Below are positions 4,183-39,692 of a stretch of 64,000 nucleotides of DNA, piece after piece. The notes beneath the pieces are model-generated. The model saw only the letters and a program-made list of their open reading frames with translations. It was not told the origin of the DNA and made no database searches. Made by a program: the position numbers and the translations under genes. The stretch is from the sequence record MZ234015.1; one strand, written 5' to 3'. Each line of letters starts with the position of its first letter. Positions within the stretch are counted from its first letter, which is position 1. Source of the DNA: Escherichia phage vB_EcoP-101114BS3.

Positions 4183-4210
4183 AGACAAGAAAAGCCACCC
4201 GAAGGTAGCT
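4183..4210 (-). terminator. terminator-like hairpin (minus strand)
   Basis: AGCCACC-CGAA-GGTAGCT stem-loop (1 mismatch) followed by U-rich tract on minus strand; same sequence family as 855..880. Confidence 0.45.
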
Positions 4211-4455
4211 TATTTATTCTGTGTTTCCAGTTCGCTGATACGAACTTTCAAACCGTTAATCTCAGCCTGAGCAGCTTCTAGTTTAATTAGAGCTTCTTCA
4301 GCGTCAGCTTCTGTTTGAAGAACCGCAGTGGTTAGTTCGTATAAAGCTTGGCGGAGAGAATCTTTTCCCATAGCATGAATCTGTGCAACAAAGAATTGCT
4401 TACCTTCCGTGGTTTCCAAAGTCTCTTTTAATTCTTTAGATGTTAAAGTCATCAT
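4210..4455 (-). CDS. hypothetical coiled-coil protein
   Basis: 81-aa ORF, helical heptad-like sequence. Confidence 0.5.
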   Translation of the reverse strand: MMTLTSKELKETLETTEGKQFFVAQIHAMGKDSLRQALYELTTAVLQTEADAEEALIKLEAAQAEINGLKVRISELETQNK

Positions 4456-19653: not shown

Positions 19654-20889
19654 TTACAGAGTTACTGCTACTTCGCTACCTTCAACATTGACAGACTCTA
19701 ACTTGCGAGGGTTATGAATCTGGACTGGATTGACCGGAACGTTCCAACCACTGCGGTAGAAGTTACGACCATCACAGAACAAAATGACATTGGCAGACAT
19801 TGCATTCGGTTGAAGGTTGTTGTGGACGTGACGGATATCTGCAATCCAGTAACCACGAGACAAAGTGTAACCAGTAGGTGCATTACGAATAGTTTGAGTA
19901 TTCATCTGACCTTCTAGCTGCATTTCTTCAGGAACTACATCTACCGAATCAACCGGCTGTGCTACTTGTCCTTCCAGTGCAAAGTTTTCATCATCAGCAC
20001 TTTCAATATCATCCACTAACTCACCGTCTCCATCTTCAATCGGAGTCTGGTAAACCACTTTATACTGAGGAGTATAGAGAGGGTTCTGAGCTTTAACAAA
20101 CTCAAGAATGTTATGACGGTAGGTATCCAGAGTTGTACCAGTCAGGCCCGGTGCTGTATTAACTTCCAGTACCCACGCTTCTTGACCTTTGGTGATAATA
20201 TCAACTGCACCGAAATCCAGACCCATTGATTCAACAGCTTTCACTGCATTGATCAGAGAGGCGTCATTCGGAGCATCTGTGAAGGAGCTTGAGTAAACCC
20301 AGCCAGTGTGGTGATTACGAATATCTTCACGATAGTTAGGGTCTTCGCGATAACCATTGCGACGAATCTTCTTCTGAACATAGGTGATTACACCTTTGAA
20401 CACATGGACACGCCACTCACGACGTGGGCCTTGAATGCCTTTAGTGTACAGTTCAGCTCGACCAAGACCATCACCCGGTTCTACAACAACAATGCCCGAA
20501 CCAGAGTGACCAGTCAGCTCATGGCGCTCATACACAATATTACCAGTGTTTGACCACTCTTGAGCAGTCTCTTGAACATCTGTGTATTCCACAGTTTTAA
20601 CACCTGCTTGGTCCATCACGCTGAAAGCACGACGTTTGTTCGCTGCCATATGTAAGGCTGCGGTACGGTTAAGGACGGTTGCAGAACCAAAGAATGATTC
20701 AGGATAGCGACGGTTCCCGTAGTTAACAACCACATCACCTTCACGAGAACGCCAGCGGCTATTCTCTGAAAGAAGACCCATCACGTTAGCATTGATGCGT
20801 TCATCACGGATAGTATCACTGATAGCAGATACTAGAGCGTTAACAGAATCAGACGGGCCATACGGAAGAACACGGATACGAGTAGTCAT
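19654..20889 (-). CDS. ATP-grasp family ligase
   Basis: ATP-grasp C-terminal signature WVLEVNTAPGL; 411 aa. Confidence 0.7.
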   Translation of the reverse strand: MTTRIRVLPYGPSDSVNALVSAISDTIRDERINANVMGLLSENSRWRSREGDVVVNYGNRRYPESFFGSATVLNRTAALHMAANKRRAFSVMDQAGVKTVEYTDVQETAQEWSNTGNIVYERHELTGHSGSGIVVVEPGDGLGRAELYTKGIQGPRREWRVHVFKGVITYVQKKIRRNGYREDPNYREDIRNHHTGWVYSSSFTDAPNDASLINAVKAVESMGLDFGAVDIITKGQEAWVLEVNTAPGLTGTTLDTYRHNILEFVKAQNPLYTPQYKVVYQTPIEDGDGELVDDIESADDENFALEGQVAQPVDSVDVVPEEMQLEGQMNTQTIRNAPTGYTLSRGYWIADIRHVHNNLQPNAMSANVILFCDGRNFYRSGWNVPVNPVQIHNPRKLESVNVEGSEVAVTL

Positions 20890-20891
20890 TT

Positions 20892-21122
20892 TTAGATACC
20901 TTTTAGTTTAAGAATTTCGTTACGACAGGATTGAATTTTAGCTTCGATTGCCCAATACTCAGCGAACATTTCGTCTTCTTGGGCATCGCTTGGAGAGTCG
21001 ATTAAGTTAAAAGCAAACGGATACAGCTTTCGCTGCTCCGTTACCAGTTGTTGAAGTCGGAGTTGTTGATACTCCAGCATTGTCAGGTGAGGCTTAGCTC
21101 CCTTGCTTGACATGAGGCTCAA
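20892..21122 (-). CDS. hypothetical protein
   Basis: 76-aa ORF between ATP-grasp and GATase genes. Confidence 0.4.
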   Translation of the reverse strand: MSLMSSKGAKPHLTMLEYQQLRLQQLVTEQRKLYPFAFNLIDSPSDAQEDEMFAEYWAIEAKIQSCRNEILKLKGI

Positions 21123-21327
21123 CTTTAATCCCCTTCATTTTAACATAGTCAGCCAACACGTTATTGATAACGGTTGGAAAAGGGATTTCTACTGGAGAGT
21201 CAACCAGCTTCCCAATACCTTCTTGCATCCACTTCTGGATTGCTCGGAGGTTATCACATCCTGTGCTTGTCATCGGAATACGGCGGGTAGTTACCACGTT
21301 ATCCAACATCAGTTTACGAACTTCCAT
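21094..21327 (-). CDS. hypothetical protein
   Basis: 77-aa ORF. Confidence 0.4.
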   Translation of the reverse strand: MEVRKLMLDNVVTTRRIPMTSTGCDNLRAIQKWMQEGIGKLVDSPVEIPFPTVINNVLADYVKMKGIKVEPHVKQGS

Positions 21328-21338
21328 AACTATACCTC

Positions 21339-23372
21339 TTAGTGTTTACCTTTACAGTAATCTGAATTACAGATCACCCTGTTTTCTTTGTTCAGTGAGC
21401 AAGTTTCTGCATCACGCCACGGAATTTGTTTATAACAGACTGCACAAAACCCAATTGAAGTCCAGAGGGCTTTTGTAAACTCAGCTGTTCGTTGTCCATC
21501 GTAACTGACAACTGTTTTTCGGAGAGAGGTTGACTTTTCTGGAAATGTCTCCGCTTTCTCAGCGGGTACCTCCTTTGGGGCATTCTTTGGACCATAAACA
21601 GAGATGGCATAAGTATCACCACCACGTTTTTCCAAATACGAATTAGGAACATCTGCAAGTGTGATGTCCCCTGAACGTTTTGCTGAGCTGACCATTACAA
21701 TCATACGGCTAAGCATACGTTCATCAACACGAACAGCTACTTCAGGACGACGTGGGTTGGTTGTGTCTACTGCTTTAGTCCAAATATAACCTTCAGATAG
21801 AGTAACATTCTTTACTTTATCTTTGATTTCTTTGGAGCAGATATAACAAACGTCTTCACCACGAAGTTTACTCATTTCGTTGTCAAACTCGAAATCAGTC
21901 TTGACTTCACCACAGATAGCACATACACCCAAAGGCACATCTTCTTCCTCTTCAGAGGTTTTAGATAACGCTTCGAAGCATTCTGGATGCCAGTATGCCT
22001 GATAAGCAAACACAGCCTTACGAGCATCTTTCCAGTCAATGTGCTTATCACAACCACCACAGTCACCATGAGAGTGAGATTCCCAGAACTTACGAGTGAC
22101 TTCTACACCATTCTTAGTGATGAAGGAGTCCTCTGCATCAAAAGGGATATCATCATCAAAATCAGCAGTAGTGCTTTGAGGCTCCTTATCTGTAGCATCA
22201 ACAAACAGCCCTGAAGTTAGTACGAGGCGAATCATACTGTCCACTTCGGAGATACAAGCAATCGTCCCGCGATATACTACCTTTGGGTTTTCAAGAGCCT
22301 TAAGATATTCATCTTTGGCTACGTTGTGAACATCCCCTTCGACATACTCTTGAGCTTTATCATCGTAGATGTAACCAACCATCTTACCACGATCTGTGTT
22401 GTTATAAGCATGGAACTCGTGAGGAATAATATCCACACGACCATCACGACGATAAGGAAGACCGCGATCGGCAGCCAGTTTGTTCTGGTCTTCAATCGCT
22501 TTACGACGACGAATGTCTCCGCTTGTCACGCCGGGCTTGTCGTCTTTGTTTCCGTAAATGTCGCTTGTGCTGCTGCTTGATTTGTTTGTCTGTTGGTTCT
22601 GATAAAGAGAGGAGTTCGAGTAATAGCCGCCCCAGCGACTCGTTACCGTAAAAACCGGAAGCGTGTGCTCCACCTCTTGAACCAGAGTCATACGACTGTT
22701 AGACACATCAAAGATATACTCAGTTCCCACTTTACATTCGAAGTGGTCATTGATATGGTTCTTATGGGACTTAGAACGCTCTAAAATCCACATAAGCATA
22801 GCTTCTTCAGAAGCTCCAAACCAATCCAAACCACAGCGGGCTAGGTGGAAAGGACGCTCATCATTACGGATAATGTGAAGTGTGTTGTCTTTAGCATCAT
22901 GCCAAATCAAAGTGAATGCACCATCCAGTTTTTGGATAGTCTCTGCTGCTCCAATGGTGTTAATTGAGTGGCAGATGTTTTCACTATCAACTTCGAAACG
23001 CTTACTGTCAGGAAGGAGATCTTGATCTAACAGGGTTCCATTATGAACCAGAGTAATATCCCCGTGAGTAAATGGGTGAGCATTTCGAGCATTGACAGCC
23101 CCACGAGTGGCATGTCGGCTGTGACCAACAATCCACGAAGGAGGAACTACGTAGTTCGTAAGCCCTTTGGTAATATTTGTATATTCTGTCTGGAGCATAA
23201 AAGCATAAGAAGGAAGAGCTTCTTTATAAGAGAAGACTTGCTTTTCACCTTTACGCTGACCAAACACACCAGTTGAGTGCTGTCCACGGAAAACACCAGC
23301 ATACAGAAGTTGGTTGAAAATGTCCAAATCTGCTGAGGTCATGTTGCCGCCAGCTAATACGATACCACAAAT
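21339..23372 (-). CDS. class II (Ntn) glutamine amidotransferase domain fused to Cys-rich zinc-ribbon region; predicted AUU start
   Basis: In-frame CGIVLAGGN...RGQHSTGV...LVHNGTL upstream of first ATG matches MCGIV...RGQD..G of class II GATases; only non-stop codon before Cys is ATT at 23370..23372; AGGTGG 8 nt upstream; C-terminal CxxC pairs. Confidence 0.65.
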   Translation of the reverse strand: MCGIVLAGGNMTSADLDIFNQLLYAGVFRGQHSTGVFGQRKGEKQVFSYKEALPSYAFMLQTEYTNITKGLTNYVVPPSWIVGHSRHATRGAVNARNAHPFTHGDITLVHNGTLLDQDLLPDSKRFEVDSENICHSINTIGAAETIQKLDGAFTLIWHDAKDNTLHIIRNDERPFHLARCGLDWFGASEEAMLMWILERSKSHKNHINDHFECKVGTEYIFDVSNSRMTLVQEVEHTLPVFTVTSRWGGYYSNSSLYQNQQTNKSSSSTSDIYGNKDDKPGVTSGDIRRRKAIEDQNKLAADRGLPYRRDGRVDIIPHEFHAYNNTDRGKMVGYIYDDKAQEYVEGDVHNVAKDEYLKALENPKVVYRGTIACISEVDSMIRLVLTSGLFVDATDKEPQSTTADFDDDIPFDAEDSFITKNGVEVTRKFWESHSHGDCGGCDKHIDWKDARKAVFAYQAYWHPECFEALSKTSEEEEDVPLGVCAICGEVKTDFEFDNEMSKLRGEDVCYICSKEIKDKVKNVTLSEGYIWTKAVDTTNPRRPEVAVRVDERMLSRMIVMVSSAKRSGDITLADVPNSYLEKRGGDTYAISVYGPKNAPKEVPAEKAETFPEKSTSLRKTVVSYDGQRTAEFTKALWTSIGFCAVCYKQIPWRDAETCSLNKENRVICNSDYCKGKH

Positions 23373-23449
23373 TTTCTAATCCACCTGAAGGGTAAACCCT
23401 TTCATCTAATTAACCTTTAAATGCGCCCTGTATAAGAGCGCCCGTTGTG

Positions 23450-24550
23450 TTACAGCAGTCGTTCTAATTGCATTTCCAGATGGTCTGGAATATAACCAGT
23501 GACGTTATCATCACTGCTACCTGATTCACGCATCAATGCAAACATGTGACGAATTTCACGAACCGTTGCGATTCGAGTGCTTTCAATCTGAGGGGTGTAG
23601 TAGGTCATGATCTCTTCGTAGACACTGTTGGCATTACCGCGCACATATCCCAAGAAACCATAGAAGTCATTCATATCACGTAAGTTGATAAGGACTTCAC
23701 CATCAGGGCCAGTCTGTTGCACACGAACACGACCAACCAAAGTTACAGATTGCTCACGACAGAAGAGAATATCACGAGCAAGACGATACCCTTCAGTGAG
23801 ATCACTGTCTCTTGGAGTATAGTCTAGGGGTAGATGTTGAATCATAGGAGCGAAGCGCAGCTCATTCAACTTCTCAACATAAGCTTCATTGTCTAAATCT
23901 GCATATTCAACAGCCAGTTTCTTGAGAACCAAGAAGCGGTTGACCAGATTCAGAAGTTGGCTCTTTTTCCACTTCGGCTCTGAGATACGGAACTCAACAG
24001 AACCAAATTGAGATAGAGGCAAAAGATTAAGGGAGGTGTATTTATCCCAGCTATTAACAAGAGAGTGGAAGAAAGCTTCCCCGTCTCGGTTGAACGCTGA
24101 CGAAGCATTCATAACTTGTGCTTGAACGACAGCAAAAGCTGGACAGAAGTTGCTACGATAGCGATGGTATCCAGAACATTTGAACATCATCTTTTCATAG
24201 AACGTCCATCCAAGAATAACTTTCTTAAGGATATTACTATCAGCGTCACGCATATCCATATGAACGTGAGTGGAGCAGCGCCAAGTTCCCTCGGCTCCAG
24301 AATCCTGTACTGCTTCACTCAGATTGTTAATAGCACGAAGTAATTCTTCACCGTTGTAAGGTCGTGCACATACTAATTCACAACCATCACGAAGAGAGCC
24401 ATCTTCAGTACAAACCCACATATCAGCGTCAATGTCAGTTGTACCTTCGACTTCTAACTCAATACCAACACCACACTGAAAAGCAATACTTGGATGCGGT
24501 TCAGATAAGCGAGGGTTACGGTATCCAAAAACTTGTGCTACGGTTGTCAT
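23450..24550 (-). CDS. amidoligase-like enzyme (carboxylate-amine ligase, glutamine-synthetase-like fold)
   Basis: GVGIELEVEG and STHVHMD motifs as recalled for Amidoligase_2-type enzymes. Confidence 0.6.
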   Translation of the reverse strand: MTTVAQVFGYRNPRLSEPHPSIAFQCGVGIELEVEGTTDIDADMWVCTEDGSLRDGCELVCARPYNGEELLRAINNLSEAVQDSGAEGTWRCSTHVHMDMRDADSNILKKVILGWTFYEKMMFKCSGYHRYRSNFCPAFAVVQAQVMNASSAFNRDGEAFFHSLVNSWDKYTSLNLLPLSQFGSVEFRISEPKWKKSQLLNLVNRFLVLKKLAVEYADLDNEAYVEKLNELRFAPMIQHLPLDYTPRDSDLTEGYRLARDILFCREQSVTLVGRVRVQQTGPDGEVLINLRDMNDFYGFLGYVRGNANSVYEEIMTYYTPQIESTRIATVREIRHMFALMRESGSSDDNVTGYIPDHLEMQLERLL

Positions 24551-25173
24551 AATGATTCCACCAACTCTACATTATATGATGACAGGTCTGAAGAAATATG
24601 CTTGAACTTCTCCAGAAGGTTTAAAGATTGACGACCATTGTCGCCATAACCAGCTTCAAGAAGCACGTTTCCAACGTAAGCCCCTTTGTAATAAACTTTT
24701 CCATCGACAGGATTGATATAGATGAAACGAGTAACCAACCCTTCAAACTCTGGATTAAACAGGTTATACACCAAATCACCCGGAATCGAACGTCCGAGAG
24801 AAGGTGGAGTACCACGAAGTTTATTCCCCATCAAGCCTTTAGCTCGCTGACGAACAGGGTTGATATGGGTCCAGCTCACCACGTTATTACCATGCTGAAG
24901 GTATCCTACATCTGGAGACTCCAGAATGAGGCTGTGATCAAACACTGGGATATTACTAACAATCTGACGTTCAAACTGACCTTCGGAGTTTTTAGTCCAG
25001 CGTTCCGCCTCAAACACTAAAGACATTTCAGCGTCGTGTGAGTAGTCGTCGATATCAAAGTTACCTTGCTGACGAACATCAAGCACATATAGAGGGAGGT
25101 TTTTACCATCAGGTGATCGCTGAGCAATCCATGTTCCACAATAATAGTGTTGAAAATCTCTTAACAAGCTCAC
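24547..25173 (-). CDS. hypothetical protein in ligase cassette
   Basis: 208-aa ORF, 4-nt overlap with amidoligase gene. Confidence 0.5.
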   Translation of the reverse strand: MSLLRDFQHYYCGTWIAQRSPDGKNLPLYVLDVRQQGNFDIDDYSHDAEMSLVFEAERWTKNSEGQFERQIVSNIPVFDHSLILESPDVGYLQHGNNVVSWTHINPVRQRAKGLMGNKLRGTPPSLGRSIPGDLVYNLFNPEFEGLVTRFIYINPVDGKVYYKGAYVGNVLLEAGYGDNGRQSLNLLEKFKHISSDLSSYNVELVESL

Positions 25174-25182
25174 AATATCACC

Positions 25183-25989
25183 TTATACAATCTGGAGTTT
25201 AGAGGAGAATTTATCTGCTTCTTTAACATCGTTACTGTTGATGATGTTGTGAAGCTTTTCAATTGGAAGGCGAGAGTGAAGTGACATCAATACTTCCATA
25301 TCACAGCCTTGAACAACCTTATCAACTTGCTCATAAACAAACTTGCGGGTTGACTTCTCGCCAATCCAGAAGTTAGAAAGAGAACGATATTCAATACCGT
25401 AATCCTTGTAACGAATGGCAGAAGCCTTTCCGTATAACTCTTTACGACGAGTGTCTTTATCCATGATTACAGCTGGCAAGGACAGGAAATAATCACACAA
25501 CACACCCAACATCATTTGAGTTTGTCGAGTAATCTCTAAAGTCCCGGAGACACCAAGGTGCACATGACCCCCAGCAGTACGCAAACCCTTATTAGTTGCG
25601 ACCGGTGAAGGGTTCTTTTGTCCAGTGAAGGCATTGAAATCAGGAGTACAACCAAATACAAAGGCTGACGGATGGAAAGATTCAAGCTCTTCTGAAGTGA
25701 ACACATGAGAGCTAATCCCAAGTGCTGCCTCCATGCCACGTTCATTGAGAACTTTGTTAGTCAGATCAATACCACGCTGAATGTTATCATCAAACGCTTC
25801 AAACCCTTCCTGTGGGTTAATATCAAACTCGGCCAGAACGTTGTCTTCTTGAAGACGAACATCAGGAGCCAGATCAATTTTATTGTCTTTAGAACAGCCC
25901 AGCTTACCAGCCACAGAGGTGATAATACCGGAAGCAGTACGAACAAACATTTCAGGGTCAGAGCCAATAAGGAAAGCGCGCTTAGTCAT
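25183..25989 (-). CDS. second amidoligase-like (COOH-NH2 ligase-like) protein
   Basis: GSDPEMF and GGHVHLG motifs parallel those in 23450..24550; start moved to MTKRAF. Confidence 0.45.
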   Translation of the reverse strand: MTKRAFLIGSDPEMFVRTASGIITSVAGKLGCSKDNKIDLAPDVRLQEDNVLAEFDINPQEGFEAFDDNIQRGIDLTNKVLNERGMEAALGISSHVFTSEELESFHPSAFVFGCTPDFNAFTGQKNPSPVATNKGLRTAGGHVHLGVSGTLEITRQTQMMLGVLCDYFLSLPAVIMDKDTRRKELYGKASAIRYKDYGIEYRSLSNFWIGEKSTRKFVYEQVDKVVQGCDMEVLMSLHSRLPIEKLHNIINSNDVKEADKFSSKLQIV

Positions 25990-26932
25990 TGTAATACTCC
26001 ACGAGTTCATCAAAAAGGGAAACAACACGAGCACCAGCTTCTTCTGGTGTCATTGAGGAAGGTACTGCTTGCATCAGACGTTCGATAAAACTTTGAACAG
26101 TAATTCTGTCCATACGCTGATCTAATACTTCTCGCTTGTGACCTGCACAAGTTGACCAGAGACGTAACCACTCACTCATACTCTCATAATGGTCAGGGTC
26201 TTGGTCACGACGACGTGCCATACGACGGAGAACTCCATCATTATGGTTTCGTACATAACCATCTCGGTTGTCATCAACACCGAATACATTCTGAACCCAT
26301 ACGTTTTCAGAAAATTCATCAGTGGTGCAAATTAATGGCAGAAATGCAATTGCACTCATGTCGCCATCAAAATAAGTCGCTGCTGACTCATCGGTTGAGT
26401 CTACGTCATTACTATAACACCAGCGACCAAAGAAGTTACGACTTAAACCAGCTAAGCGTAGAGCTAAACCGATTCGTTGTCGCTTAAGCAACTCTTCCTT
26501 GTCTTGTACGCCTTCCTGAAGGAACTCCATTCCATTAAAATCACCATCCAAATAGCTACGGATGGTCATTAGTCCAGTAAACACCTTGTCTGCTGGATGG
26601 TTTCGAAGGTTCACGGCAATAGAGTTCACCGAAGTGACAGAGAACATATCTTTATAGCAAGACATTGAGTTAAAAATGTCTGTTGCTTCAACTAAAGCTC
26701 TTTCGATATCTTTAGCTGGTACGCCATAAAAATTGTGAGGCCAGAAGTTAATAACTTCAATTTCTGAAGTTCTGTCACGAAGGCTTGTTCGGTTACGACT
26801 TTCACCGTTAATGTCTGTAACAGAATACATGTGCATACAGTTAAAAGTACCAAAGCAAGCTCTTCCTTTGAACACTGACTCACCGAAATCCTCTGCCGGT
26901 GTTACCGGAGCAATCGATGCGGAGATTGACAT
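25982..26932 (-). CDS. hypothetical protein in ligase cassette
   Basis: 316-aa ORF, no motif recognised. Confidence 0.55.
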   Translation of the reverse strand: MSISASIAPVTPAEDFGESVFKGRACFGTFNCMHMYSVTDINGESRNRTSLRDRTSEIEVINFWPHNFYGVPAKDIERALVEATDIFNSMSCYKDMFSVTSVNSIAVNLRNHPADKVFTGLMTIRSYLDGDFNGMEFLQEGVQDKEELLKRQRIGLALRLAGLSRNFFGRWCYSNDVDSTDESAATYFDGDMSAIAFLPLICTTDEFSENVWVQNVFGVDDNRDGYVRNHNDGVLRRMARRRDQDPDHYESMSEWLRLWSTCAGHKREVLDQRMDRITVQSFIERLMQAVPSSMTPEEAGARVVSLFDELVEYYND

Positions 26933-26940
26933 ATTCGCCT

Positions 26941-28158
26941 CTATTTATTAAAGAATAATTTTTCCATAATGGTTTCCCACTCTTCTGAGGGGAGGGTTGA
27001 GAACCCGTTTCCGTGAAGCCTGTTTGTCATGCAACTAATAATATTGTACATGTTGTAGCTTCGGGTGGATTCTGTTCCATTGTTCCAGTTATAACCGAAA
27101 ACAATTTTATCGAAGGAGGTTTTATCCGTAGTTACTTCTCGGATGAACTCAACCAAGAGCGATTTCTCTGTGATGACCGCACGTTCACCATCTGGCAGAT
27201 TACAATACTGAGGAAGAAGAATTGGTAAGAACATCGAATTGTTCACTCGACAATCACGAACATCTTCACTGCGATAGATTAGGCTTGAGAAGTCTTCATC
27301 ACGCAGGTGTCCTTCACCTTCAGTGTATTCACACTGTCGCCATTTGGTCTGACGAGGTTCAATCATTGTACTACCAACGCCTACTGTATACAGAGACGCT
27401 TGGAAGATACACGAGTCGTAATCATTCCCTGTTAAAGCAACTTGCTCATTGCCGAACACATCCACTGAAGAGTTAATCAGTCGGCTGAATGCAAGAGAGG
27501 CTAGTGGAGACCAACCTTTCTTATACATCTTGTTCAGCATTTCATACACAGCAGATTTTTCATCATCTGTATAGAATGTACGATTCAGCATCAGATAGAA
27601 CAGAGCGCGATCAGCAGGACAACCATCAGTACAAACACCCATGAATCCTACTTCATGCCATACCAGACATGAGTCAGAATCTTTATCCATGAATGCTTCA
27701 AAGGCTTCCATTACAGCCCTGTCAGTAACATCAGGACGGTTGTTTTCTTCTGCCCATGTTTCTACATGAGAAGGAGGACGAGGGTCTCCATTCTCCACCC
27801 CTTCGCGGAAATATTGAGTGGTAATAGGCTTTTTATCACCATAACGTTTTACACCATAAGCGGGAAGGTGTGTACCAGAGTTCCAGATGTACTTAATTTC
27901 GGACATAGGCATCATGTTTTCGAGAACGTTCTCTTCAGCAGTGCCTTGACGAACCATCATATTTTCACTCCACACCTTAATGCGGATATTCCAGCCGTAG
28001 TTGCTGTCATACGTGTTATAATAATCAGGATCACCATCTTCATCTTCATCATAATCACCACCCTGATAGTAACCTGCTTTCAGGAAACCATAACAAGGAG
28101 GCCAGACGGTTACAACATCATCTGATTCTTTCCAGCTTTGAAGTGTTACAGGGAACAT
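26941..28158 (-). CDS. hypothetical protein in ligase cassette
   Basis: 405-aa ORF, acidic N-terminal region, no motif recognised. Confidence 0.55.
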   Translation of the reverse strand: MFPVTLQSWKESDDVVTVWPPCYGFLKAGYYQGGDYDEDEDGDPDYYNTYDSNYGWNIRIKVWSENMMVRQGTAEENVLENMMPMSEIKYIWNSGTHLPAYGVKRYGDKKPITTQYFREGVENGDPRPPSHVETWAEENNRPDVTDRAVMEAFEAFMDKDSDSCLVWHEVGFMGVCTDGCPADRALFYLMLNRTFYTDDEKSAVYEMLNKMYKKGWSPLASLAFSRLINSSVDVFGNEQVALTGNDYDSCIFQASLYTVGVGSTMIEPRQTKWRQCEYTEGEGHLRDEDFSSLIYRSEDVRDCRVNNSMFLPILLPQYCNLPDGERAVITEKSLLVEFIREVTTDKTSFDKIVFGYNWNNGTESTRSYNMYNIISCMTNRLHGNGFSTLPSEEWETIMEKLFFNK

Positions 28159-28696: not shown

Positions 28697-28898
28697 ACAA
28701 CCTCTTCTTTGAGCTTAAAAAAGGACTCTCCTAAGAGAGCCAAGCTTTAAGGCCAATTAAATAGATATCACCCAATATCTGTGGATAACCTGCTCTTAAA
28801 ATATTCTATCCGACGGATGTTCGAGGATTATTCCTCTCCCTAGCATCGGCCCCATACGGGAAAGATTAAATTAAGTTTAGGTTAGTTGAGCCAGAATA

Positions 28899-30831: not shown

Positions 30832-31107
30832 TTTACCACCTTTAGTTATGGACCAATTTATGAGAGAACTCTCGGAAGAATGCTTTCATAAATAGGGGGA
30901 GGGGACGAATCCTCCCATATCCTATTAATTAATATTGCATGTAAGATCTAACAATTCGATGCTGTAGTGGATAGCGTAAAACGCTTACCGGCATTAAACC
31001 CAGCCCATGAGGGGCTTATGTGAATAAAATGCTCAACATTGAGCGGTTAGTTGATAGGAGATCTGAAGTCCTATCTCAAAGGACTCTCGTAAGAATCCTT
31101 CACGATA

Positions 31108-31362
31108 TCACTTAGTAAGAAAGATTATCAACTTATCCGCTACCCAGCCTATTAACATAAGGACAGGTAAGAAGAAGATAAAGATCAGCATAAAAGGCCA
31201 GAAGAATATCACCGTCCAAATAGAAAGTATATCAGGCTGACCACTCCATGAGCAGTGGAAGAAGTTGTAGAGTGTATTGGTTTTGAAGCACCATTTAACT
31301 ACAATGGCTGCTAACCACCAACCAATAACATAAATCAGGAGGACATACGCTGCTGTAACCAT
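31108..31362 (-). CDS. small membrane protein
   Basis: 84 aa, hydrophobic throughout. Confidence 0.5.
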   Translation of the reverse strand: MVTAAYVLLIYVIGWWLAAIVVKWCFKTNTLYNFFHCSWSGQPDILSIWTVIFFWPFMLIFIFFLPVLMLIGWVADKLIIFLTK

Positions 31363-32193: not shown

Positions 32194-32269
32194 TGGTGCG
32201 CCCTACAGGACTCGAACCTGTAACCAATAGCTTAGAAGGCTACTGCTCTATCCGTTGAGCTAAGAGCGC
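32194..32269 (-). tRNA. tRNA-Arg (anticodon UCU)
   Basis: Hand-folded cloverleaf: 7-bp acceptor with one G-U, D arm GCTC/GAGC, anticodon loop CTTCTAA (U33, UCU, A37), T arm ACAGG-TTCGAGT-CCTGT, encoded CCA. Confidence 0.9.
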
Positions 32270-38366: not shown

Positions 38367-39692
38367 CTTTCAATTGTAAGGGCACTATGCCCCGCTCTCT
38401 ATGAGCTTTTTAAGTCACTATTGACTTATCAATAATCACTCAATATCAAGTAATTATTGATAAGCGAGGCGGTCTTATCAGGAGTTAACCTTGCCGCCTC
38501 CTTATCCGTGATGTTTCATCTGGTATCTTTAATTAGTCGCTATAAATAAAGCCGACCTGATAGCGATGATCAATCATCACAATAAGGCAGTGCGTCCGAC
38601 TCTATTTAATTACTTTATCGTAACCGTCGGCAATATCGTCTACTTTGCTTTCGCTCCCGCCTATCCTTTTGTACTAACTCTCAATCGCTAACCATCGCCC
38701 ACTACGGGAGGTTATTGCGAAAGAGTCATTAGCCGTCTAATACATTGACGTTTTATATCTTTCAGCAGGTTTACTACATAAACTGATTATGTACGCCATC
38801 AATAGTGGCCTCAAATCATTCACATCGTAAACGTTCACACTAAACCTTATTGTTAAATAGCAATTTGCCACTTTTTAACCATTCACCGCCGCCCCCAATT
38901 GGGCGTTAATTCGTCGGATTTGCCTACCCTGATAAACTTCTTTCACTGTAGCACCTTGTTAGCGATGGCCGCCGCTACCCTTTAACCGTGGGCGATTAGT
39001 TTAGGCCGTTGCGTGTACTCAATGAATCCGTTTTATCAGTGGTGACGTTTCCAGTTAAGGGATTGTAAAAACTGTTTACCCTGATAATTTAGGGAGTCTT
39101 ACGCCGTTTTATCTGGTATGTTTTCCGATGGTTATTATCATCCAACATATTCAACCGATATAGGAGAATGTTTAAATTGTTAAAGAGCGGTAAATCTATC
39201 AGTGTGCTTTCTCACACTATGCAACTGTTAGCCGTTGTTACGCTTTTCTTAAGCGGTGAATTGCTTAAGTGTGCTCATTATGAATCATGCTGTTTTAGCT
39301 GTCAACCGCTTTTTTAATCTTTTTCGTCGTTCCCTTTATTGGGAGGATATATCAATCAGCTATATTTGATTGAAGATTAAGCGGTAAGGCTTAACTCACG
39401 ATTCATATTTTTAAAGAGCGGTGTTTCTTACTGCTTGGTGAACATTCTATCAGAGTATTTCACCTTGTCAACTCTTTTTATCATCTTCTTTTATTCTATT
39501 CCCTTATCTCGCTTGAATCTATGCGAAAGGGCAAGATGATAAATTGTTAAAGAGCGGGGCACTAAGTGCCGGATGTTTCAAGTCATCGCTGACCGTGTGA
39601 ACATCTTATCATAATGATTCGATGTGTCAACAACTATTTTTCGATTAATGCATCTTGATAAACTAGCGACCGTTAAGGCCGCTAACCTTACC
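38367..39692. other. 1.3-kb ORF-free, hairpin-rich region with repeated 17-mer
   Basis: No ORF of 60 aa or more in any frame; exact 17-mer AAATTGTTAAAGAGCGG at 39174..39190 and 39541..39557 plus partial copies; several perfect inverted repeats. Confidence 0.5.

Follow-up and report, generated by a model that had tools for sequence, protein, structure and literature searches.

A glutamine amidotransferase gene of phiEco32-like phages with a very probable AUU start codon behind a conserved hairpin leader

The amidotransferase locus and its start region

We analyzed a 64-kb stretch of DNA (64,000 nucleotides [nt], here called the window) from Escherichia phage vB_EcoP-101114BS3 (MZ234015.1), a phiEco32-like podophage of Escherichia coli in the genus Suseptimavirus (Gordonclarkvirinae). 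The gene under study encodes a class II glutamine amidotransferase (GATase) whose translation very probably starts at an AUU codon. Read from this codon, the full coding sequence (CDS) occupies positions 21339..23372 of the minus strand (677 codons plus stop), as delimited by open reading frame (ORF) translation, Pfam, PHROG and profile alignment. The gene and all leader features described below lie on this strand. Upstream of it is a gene of the Amidoligase_2 family (23450..24550, minus strand; Pfam and PHROG), with its stop codon 78 nt 5' of the ATT.

On the minus strand the start region reads ...TTAAAGGTTAATTAG ATG AAA GGG TTT ACC CTT CAG GTG GAT TAG AAA ATT TGT GGT ATC GTA TTA GCT GGC GGC AAC ATG ACC... 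The proposed initiation codon, ATT (23370..23372), is the sole near-cognate start between an in-frame TAG (23376..23378) and the TGT codon of the catalytic nucleophile Cys1 (23367..23369). The TAG ends 3 nt before the ATT, with AAA (23375-23373) between them, and excludes an upstream canonical start for the enzyme. A Shine-Dalgarno (SD) sequence, AGGTGG (23381..23386), is separated from the ATT by 8 nt (ATTAGAAA). The first ATG is codon 11 (23340..23342); it is the start in RefSeq NC_070982 and in most records and would delete Cys1. The initial annotation, made from the letters of the window, had placed the TAG, AAA, ATT, Cys codon, AGGTGG 8 nt upstream and first ATG at these positions, and every element was confirmed on the minus strand. 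The statement that only AAA and ATT separate the TAG from the Cys codon was borne out as well, and the TAG is conserved.

Three features lay outside that annotation: a 9-codon mini-ORF, a hairpin abutting the SD and an exact conservation of the leader in three genera. The mini-ORF, MKGFTLQVD*, runs from its ATG (23405-23403) through the TAG that closes it (23376..23405) and shares the reading frame of the enzyme; its ATG is preceded, at 8 nt, by AAAGG (23414-23418). The hairpin (23386..23404) has the core AAGGG-UUUA-CCCUU (23388-23401), was predicted in both the minimum free energy (MFE) and the centroid fold, and is extended in the MFE fold to UGAA.GGG/CCC.UUCA. It ends 15 nt before the ATT.

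The protein matched GATase_6 in Pfam at 2.7e-14 (53.7 bits, cutoff 27) and GATase_7 at 25.1 bits (cutoff 25); GATase_4 was also matched. The match to PHROG 4736 (1e-183) begins at residue 2. In a profile of 36 family members, the Cys encoded by 23367..23369 forms an invariant column and aligns with the first residue of the mature glutaminase domain of E. coli GlmS (1xff, 1e-22) and with Cys1 of PurF (1ecb). Residues R29, R86, H99-P100, N111-G112 and D129 are likewise invariant in the 36 sequences and align with GlmS Arg26, Arg73, His86, Asn98-Gly99 and Asp123. The translation from ATT begins, after its first codon, with CGIVLAGGN and contains FRGQHSTGVF downstream, in agreement with the N terminus and the RGQHSTGV motif of the initial annotation. 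Judged by these matches and catalytic residues, the gene product is a genuine class II (N-terminal nucleophile [Ntn]) glutamine amidotransferase, and the earlier argument that such an enzyme needs Cys as residue 1 held. That this Cys would become residue 1 after removal of methionine depends on the AUU start. With Met11 as the start, the protein would lack Cys1, as had also been claimed.

We compared the locus among Suseptimavirus, Nieuwekanaalvirus (KBNP1711, EP335, and Bas89) and Kuravirus (phiEco32, Bas91, rybdy3, and Ptacy1532). The peptide CGIVLAGG is kept in all three genera. Synonymous changes occur from codon 3 on (GGT to GGC, GCT to GCA, GGC to GGT, GGA or GGG, and AAC to AAT), and codons 2 to 10 evolve like coding sequence. 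Codon 11, ATG in the window, is CTG or CTC (Leu) in Kuravirus and Nieuwekanaalvirus; the ATG annotated in RefSeq is therefore not conserved. Across the three genera, there were no substitutions in the 50 nt before the ATT versus 23 to 24% divergence over the next 180 nt (first 60 codons). The exactly conserved leader spans 56 nt (23365..23420) and ranks among the approximately 9 longest three-genus exact stretches of the window. The hairpin, SD, stop and start codon explain about 30 of the approximately 50 invariant leader positions. Other stretches of 56 to 86 nt (38461-38604, 38823-38881, 31051-31108, and 28770-28826) are exactly conserved in Kuravirus and/or Nieuwekanaalvirus and look noncoding or regulatory.

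In all 96 E. coli and Shigella phage records, a 67-nt leader was at least 98.5% identical and the ATT was invariant, so that a sequencing error, one of the points raised in the initial annotation, does not account for this codon. The same leader was found at approximately 90% identity in the Aeromonas phage BUCT695, which belongs to another family (Grimontviridae). There, the stem and TAG AAA ATT TGT are unchanged and the loop is TTAA instead of TTTA. The mini-ORF keeps its frame and length as MKGLTLQAD*, and its own SD is lost (AAATG). The annotated start of the BUCT695 GATase is again a downstream ATG. At this locus (L261, 2308-2500), a broken ORF with an HNH-endonuclease-like motif (DCWLWTGCINSDGYP) lies between the ligase gene and the GATase leader, which is intact.

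Start codons across the family

The initial annotation had named comparison with homologs as a check on the start. Among 51 database homologs with 29 to 71% identity, 46 begin with MCG. Three were called with N-terminal extensions; these have Ile before the Cys, encoded as ATT-TGY in the DNA, and two of them carry AGGAGG 8 nt upstream of the ATT. At one of the three loci (L017), the ATG chosen by the gene caller would overlap the preceding gene by 62 nt.

Family loci were then collected from three scans of IMG/VR, and the codon preceding the Cys codon was read in 139 distinct leaders. The discovery set of 66 leaders, including 4 metagenome loci, contained ATG in 56 cases, ATT in 7, ATC in 2, TTG in 1 and GTG in none. 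The second set, 73 new leaders used for validation, contained 52 ATG, 9 ATT, 4 ATC, 6 TTG and 2 GTG codons, which gives 108 ATG, 16 ATT, 6 ATC, 7 TTG and 2 GTG codons for both sets together. The codon before the Cys was always a known initiator, and ATT or ATC accounted for 16% (22/139). In 14 of these 22 leaders, the stretch from the last in-frame stop to the Cys codon contained no ATG, GTG or TTG. In a neighbor-joining tree, ATT/ATC members fell into at least five groups set apart by ATG relatives.

The leaders of ATT/ATC members differ from those of ATG members in further respects. Their SD is stronger, with a median of -9.3 versus -6.5 kcal/mol (P = 0.0002 combined), and the difference was replicated (P = 0.004 in the discovery set and P = 0.019 in the validation set); a stronger SD may compensate for the weak start codon. 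Overlap of the start with an upstream stop occurred in 0/24 ATT/ATC leaders versus 41/108 for ATG starts. GATase genes from IMG/VR that have the GGAGGATAG-N4 type of leader start with ATT in eight cases and TTG in one, never with ATG. Since a single substitution converts ATT to ATG, ATG is the majority codon of the family and this leader type never occurs with it, the weak codon appears to be maintained by selection; we infer that it is a selected feature.

A second Ntn-amidotransferase-like family (ICGI[VA]YAEDF...RHRG...GFGIF) also starts with ATT or ATC behind a GGAGGATAG leader (L286 around 4183-4214 and L392 around 2794-2831, both on the minus strand), which suggests that the leader module extends beyond one protein family. 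A further locus, L263, was discarded as a chance match to the junction pattern, as it is not a GATase.

The hairpin leader and its gene neighborhood

Hairpins were scored when they were perfect, with at least 4 bp, at least 2 G-C pairs and a loop of 3 to 5 nt, and ended 12 to 16 nt before the start. In the discovery set, such a hairpin was present in 8/9 ATT/ATC lineages versus 2/55 ATG leaders (Fisher test, 9e-8), and other offsets were without enrichment. A metagenome scan with a pattern covering only the junction (GGAGGATAG-N4-ATT-TGY-GG) yielded the hairpin in 12/16 GATase genes versus 5/55 unrelated matches (Fisher test, 6e-7), at least two of these five being GATases that had been missed by the filter. 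The stem sequences all differ (AGAGT, AAGCGA, GAACCT, GCTAC, CATGC, CCTAGA, TAAAGC, AATGC, GACTC, GCCCT, TGACGG, and GCTGC).

A covariance model, R1, was built from nine in-register leaders, all of them from distant metagenomic or viral sequences. It consists of the hairpin, GGAGGAUAG, N4 and AUU UGY GG. Upon realignment of 24 distinct nonseed leaders to R1, standard pairs occupied all 82 aligned pair cells, with 37 double-sided changes and 4 to 5 pair types per position, and the signal collapsed when the partners were slid by 1 to 3 columns. The helix was deleted in about a quarter to a third of these leaders. As the alignment was fitted to the structure, it supports the positional tests and is not independent of them.

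The window leader matched R1 over the full length of the model (23364..23409, minus strand), with AAGGG/CCCUU in the model stem, at 23.4 bits and a rough E value of about 1e-3, a score to which the conserved ATT-TGY-GG included in R1 contributes. With filters off, nothing else on either strand of the window matched better. Relative to the consensus, the window leader has GGUGGAU instead of GGAGGAU and one extra nucleotide. We refer to a hairpin-SD-AUU leader where a hairpin of 4 to 7 bp ends 12 to 16 nt before the start and is followed by a GGAGGAU-type SD, a stop trinucleotide 3 to 4 nt before the ATT and TGY GG; by its R1 match and the position of its hairpin, the window leader is of this type. 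Possible roles of the hairpin are stabilization or insulation of the SD, docking on the ribosomal platform and protection of a 5' end. An outer helix masking the SD and the mini-ORF AUG was also considered and rejected, as it offered no informative variation and its folds were no better than those of shuffled sequences.

A stop trinucleotide ending 4 nt before the start was found in 12/24 ATT/ATC leaders versus 6% of ATG leaders. It closes a real upstream gene in only four of the ATT/ATC leaders (L076, L115, L017, and L118). Upstream ORFs ending 1 to 6 nt before the start were not enriched (9/24 ATT/ATC versus 36/108 ATG leaders), and coupling to a mini-ORF or to termination was rejected as a general requirement on these counts. 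Among the window ORFs of at least 150 amino acids, TAA is used 28 times, TGA 6 times and TAG twice; the least used of the three is fixed both in the window leader and in the GGAGGATAG motif that distant relatives carry. The sole tRNA gene in the window encodes tRNA-Arg (anticodon TCT; 32194-32269, minus strand). With only this tRNA found and TAG used as a stop, a recoded TAG or a suppressor tRNA was dismissed. The tRNA-Arg annotated in Bas91 shares about 10 nt with the 3' end of a homing endonuclease CDS.

On its 5' side, the leader is bounded by a second predicted hairpin, GCGCTCT-tatac-AGGGCGC (23423..23441, minus strand), just after the amidoligase stop. It shows compensatory changes in sister genera (GTGCCTC...GGGGCAC), and the lack of a T-run sets it apart from classical terminators. 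Another hairpin, CAGTGATG-ataa-CGTCACTG (23497-23516, minus strand), is terminator-like, falls within the 3' end of the amidoligase gene and is annotated as a terminator by the depositors of 4E8. It was set aside as a terminator for the leader, being a different hairpin within the amidoligase gene.

The class II GATase domain occupies the N-terminal part of the enzyme and is followed by a C-terminal region of approximately 430 amino acids with several CxxC pairs (21339-22600, minus strand), in which the Pfam search found no recognized synthase domain. In the domain search, the CxxC pairs weakly matched a LIM domain, and shorter GATase homologs (approximately 400 amino acids) terminate in CxxC...CxxC. 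The gene is part of a conserved cluster on the minus strand (19654-28158) that comprises a RimK-like ATP-grasp gene (annotated "S6 glutaminyl transferase"), two small ORFs, the GATase and Amidoligase_2 genes, and genes for an unknown 208-amino-acid protein, a phiEco32-type COOH-NH2 ligase and two unknown proteins; farther downstream is a gene for a gamma-glutamyl cyclotransferase. The cluster looks like a pathway that forms peptide or amide bonds, and gene context makes the neighboring amidoligase and ATP-grasp genes candidate acceptor or synthase partners of the GATase. In Bas89, an HNH endonuclease gene is located directly 3' of the GATase gene.

Initiation at AUU and its alternatives

We consider it very likely, on the sequence evidence, that translation of the enzyme starts at the AUU at 23372-23370. 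The same codon had been judged the most plausible start in the initial annotation, and the absence of an alternative start, the homologs, the conservation and earlier annotations all support it. In the mechanism that we propose, the 30S subunit would be recruited by the AGGUGG SD 8 nt upstream of the AUU, and the AUU would be read as formylmethionine (fMet) by the initiator tRNA. Deformylase and methionine aminopeptidase would then remove the fMet and expose Cys1 as the nucleophile; Cys is a permitted second residue for methionine removal. The weak codon would keep the enzyme low or gated by initiation factor 3 (IF3), offset by a strong SD, and the hairpin abutting the SD would be part of the same initiation module, perhaps stabilizing or insulating the SD. 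With its stop 3 nt ahead of the AUU, the mini-ORF may contribute a degree of termination-reinitiation, as at thrS-infC, and is probably not required. A wider reading, in which the leader is an old, selected translational control module whose weak codon is kept, never reverts to AUG and would be read solely in a particular initiation setting, with enzyme output gated by the initiation state of the host, e.g., the IF3-to-ribosome ratio during infection, is put forward tentatively; we regard it as possible and somewhat doubtful.

Several observations weigh against these interpretations. We found no direct translation data on the AUU, such as an N-terminal peptide, ribosome profiling, toeprint or reporter, and proteomics of SU10 virions and infected cells detected the protein without its N terminus. 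The window SD is only moderate in strength (-7.0 kcal/mol), and low or IF3-gated expression would be carried over from the E. coli literature and not derived from this phage. The neighbor-joining tree behind the independent lineages is long-branched and lacks support values. As for the hairpin, its criterion was set post hoc, after the discovery set, and the same criterion applied to the first validation set gave 4/13 versus 5/52, a weak replication. Between a quarter and a third of ATT/ATC leaders lack the hairpin, and individual hairpins were no more stable than shuffled sequence (z scores of -0.1 to -1.9). Within E. coli phages, the leader is invariant, which makes covariation there uninformative for both the hairpin and the mini-ORF. 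Universal occurrence of the hairpin in ATT/ATC leaders was rejected in view of the 4/13 result, and we regard it as a feature of a subgroup.

Ribosomes might instead reach the AUU mainly by termination-reinitiation, with translation of the mini-ORF melting the hairpin, termination at the UAG and restart 3 nt downstream. The mini-ORF is in frame and has AAAGG 8 nt before its ATG, BUCT695 keeps its ATG, length and TAG, and the ATT or ATC of L076, L115, L017 and L118 follows the stop of a long upstream gene at a distance of 4 nt. The stop/3-nt/AUU geometry equals that of the thrS-infC junction (UAA GGU AUU), where about half of the expression in a reporter system was attributed to reinitiation (PMC3592434). 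However, an ORF ending 1 to 6 nt upstream is no more common for ATT/ATC than for ATG leaders, the SD of the mini-ORF is lost in BUCT695 and its AUG is paired in the predicted hairpin. Both substitutions within the mini-ORF of BUCT695 are nonsynonymous, so that there is no sign of selection on the peptide. As the principal route, reinitiation thus seems rather unlikely to us; it is a possible contributor. Far less likely still is read-through of the UAG (23378-23376) from the upstream ATG, with the resulting 12-residue propeptide (MKGFTLQVD-X-KI) cleaved to expose Cys1 in the manner of PurF. The ATG is in frame at that distance, and BUCT695 keeps the same frame. Propeptides are generally known from some class II GATases; Bacillus subtilis PurF has an 11-residue propeptide, and its chains in 1ao0 and 1gph begin at Cys1. 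The phage, however, has only tRNA-Arg(TCT) and no suppressor tRNA, and TAG is a genuine stop for 2 of its 36 long ORFs. Other ATT lineages (L048, L064, L073, L076, L109, and others) have in-frame stops without a start before the ATT. Leaders with an open frame invariably have an ATT- or ATC-encoded Ile ahead of the Cys, and a propeptide would impose no such requirement. The leader is, moreover, conserved at every nucleotide and not in a codon-like manner. Read-through is highly improbable on these grounds.

The start given in most database records, ATG 23342-23340, would yield a protein without Cys1 and hence a noncatalytic or differently acting domain. It is annotated in RefSeq NC_070982, SU7, ECBP2 and many other records, and the SU7 record marks a ribosome-binding site ahead of it. 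Against this stand the CTG or CTC codon at this position in two genera and the evolution of codons 2 to 10 as coding sequence, together with the invariance of all glutaminase residues, including the Cys, in the family. In Kuravirus and Nieuwekanaalvirus, gene callers fall back on starts 70 to approximately 140 codons farther in, at which half of the domain is lost; the annotation pattern is that expected from callers restricted to ATG, GTG and TTG. We give this start hardly any credence. Finally, the leader could be mainly a signal in the DNA or transcript (promoter, operator, terminator or processing site) with an incidental link to the ATT, as the hairpin, SD and start codon would not by themselves require perfect conservation of approximately 50 nt. 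Yet neither a sigma-70-like promoter nor an intrinsic terminator was found in the leader, Rfam gave no match near threshold there, and, with up to 3 mismatches allowed, the motif occurs just once in the window, unlike a repeated phage promoter, as which it was also considered and rejected. The element keeps a fixed distance from the start codon, and in distant leaders the stems vary freely with pairing kept, which points to RNA structure rather than to a sequence-specific DNA site. A primary role of this kind is improbable.

The AUU start is already part of the public record for orthologs. The genes phi32_83 of phiEco32 and those of the BASEL phages Bas86 to Bas94 are orthologs with an identical leader. 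In the original phiEco32 GenBank record (EU330206, 2008) and in the BASEL records Bas87, Bas89 and Bas91, the depositors independently let the CDS begin at the homologous ATT; this likeness to the window gene is one of annotation only, and the BASEL paper does not mention the ATT start. Among the records listed, the CDS reaches the ATT in 7 of 60. With these entries dating from 2008 and 2025, the core finding is not categorically new. What appears to be new is the recurrence of ATT/ATC in the family, the hairpin-SD-AUU leader with its covarying stems, the leader type that goes with ATT and never with ATG, and the extreme conservation of the leader in E. coli phages; the family-wide pattern and the leader appear to be undescribed so far, in a literature check that left the phiEco32 papers outside.

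Canonical class II members such as GlmS, PurF and AsnB share the fold and catalytic residues of the phage enzyme, with Cys as residue 1 after processing. They differ in starting with ATG-TGY or in having a propeptide (B. subtilis PurF and GltB), whereas ATT or ATC is used by 16% of the phage family, and they carry a known synthase domain, whereas the phage enzyme is fused to a Cys-rich C-terminal region. The phage family also has amidoligase, COOH-NH2 ligase, ATP-grasp and gamma-glutamyl cyclotransferase genes in its neighborhood. As expected of an AUU-initiated gene, no canonical start yields the conserved N terminus, the SD is at a working distance and the AUU is conserved, in the 96 records and in BUCT695.

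Like the phage gene, infC of E. coli combines an AUU start with a nearby SD and an upstream frame ending 3 nt before the AUU (UAA GGU AUU versus UAG AAA AUU), and in both, the weak codon is conserved and not accidental. In infC, however, the AUU is an autoregulatory sensor, since IF3 discriminates against it, whereas the phage product is an amidotransferase without a known link to IF3. The upstream frame is a full gene, thrS, in the former and a 9-codon mini-ORF with a hairpin abutting the SD in the latter. The likeness to pcnB, which encodes the poly(A) polymerase of E. coli, is that the AUU start keeps a potentially harmful enzyme low; pcnB belongs to a different protein family, and we know of no conserved hairpin-SD leader for it. 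Initiation at AUU or AUC, with Met inserted, reaches about 1 to 2% of the AUG level; in E. coli, AUU starts have been confirmed for infC and pcnB alone, and pcnB orthologs alternate between AUU and canonical codons (bioRxiv 10.1101/063800).

About nine-tenths of the public records, including the RefSeq entry of the phage genome, start this gene 10 to approximately 140 codons late and lose the catalytic Cys or half of the domain, and predictions of function or structure made from such proteins are compromised. Comparing the codon before an obligatory N-terminal residue across a family provides a simple detector of noncanonical starts. If the leader is indeed a selected control module, it would be the first non-AUG initiation element of phages to be defined structurally and across a family. 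The enzyme family offers a natural and easily testable system for how SD strength and an adjacent RNA structure permit initiation at a weak codon, and it also lets one ask why a phage would want an amidotransferase to be made sparingly.

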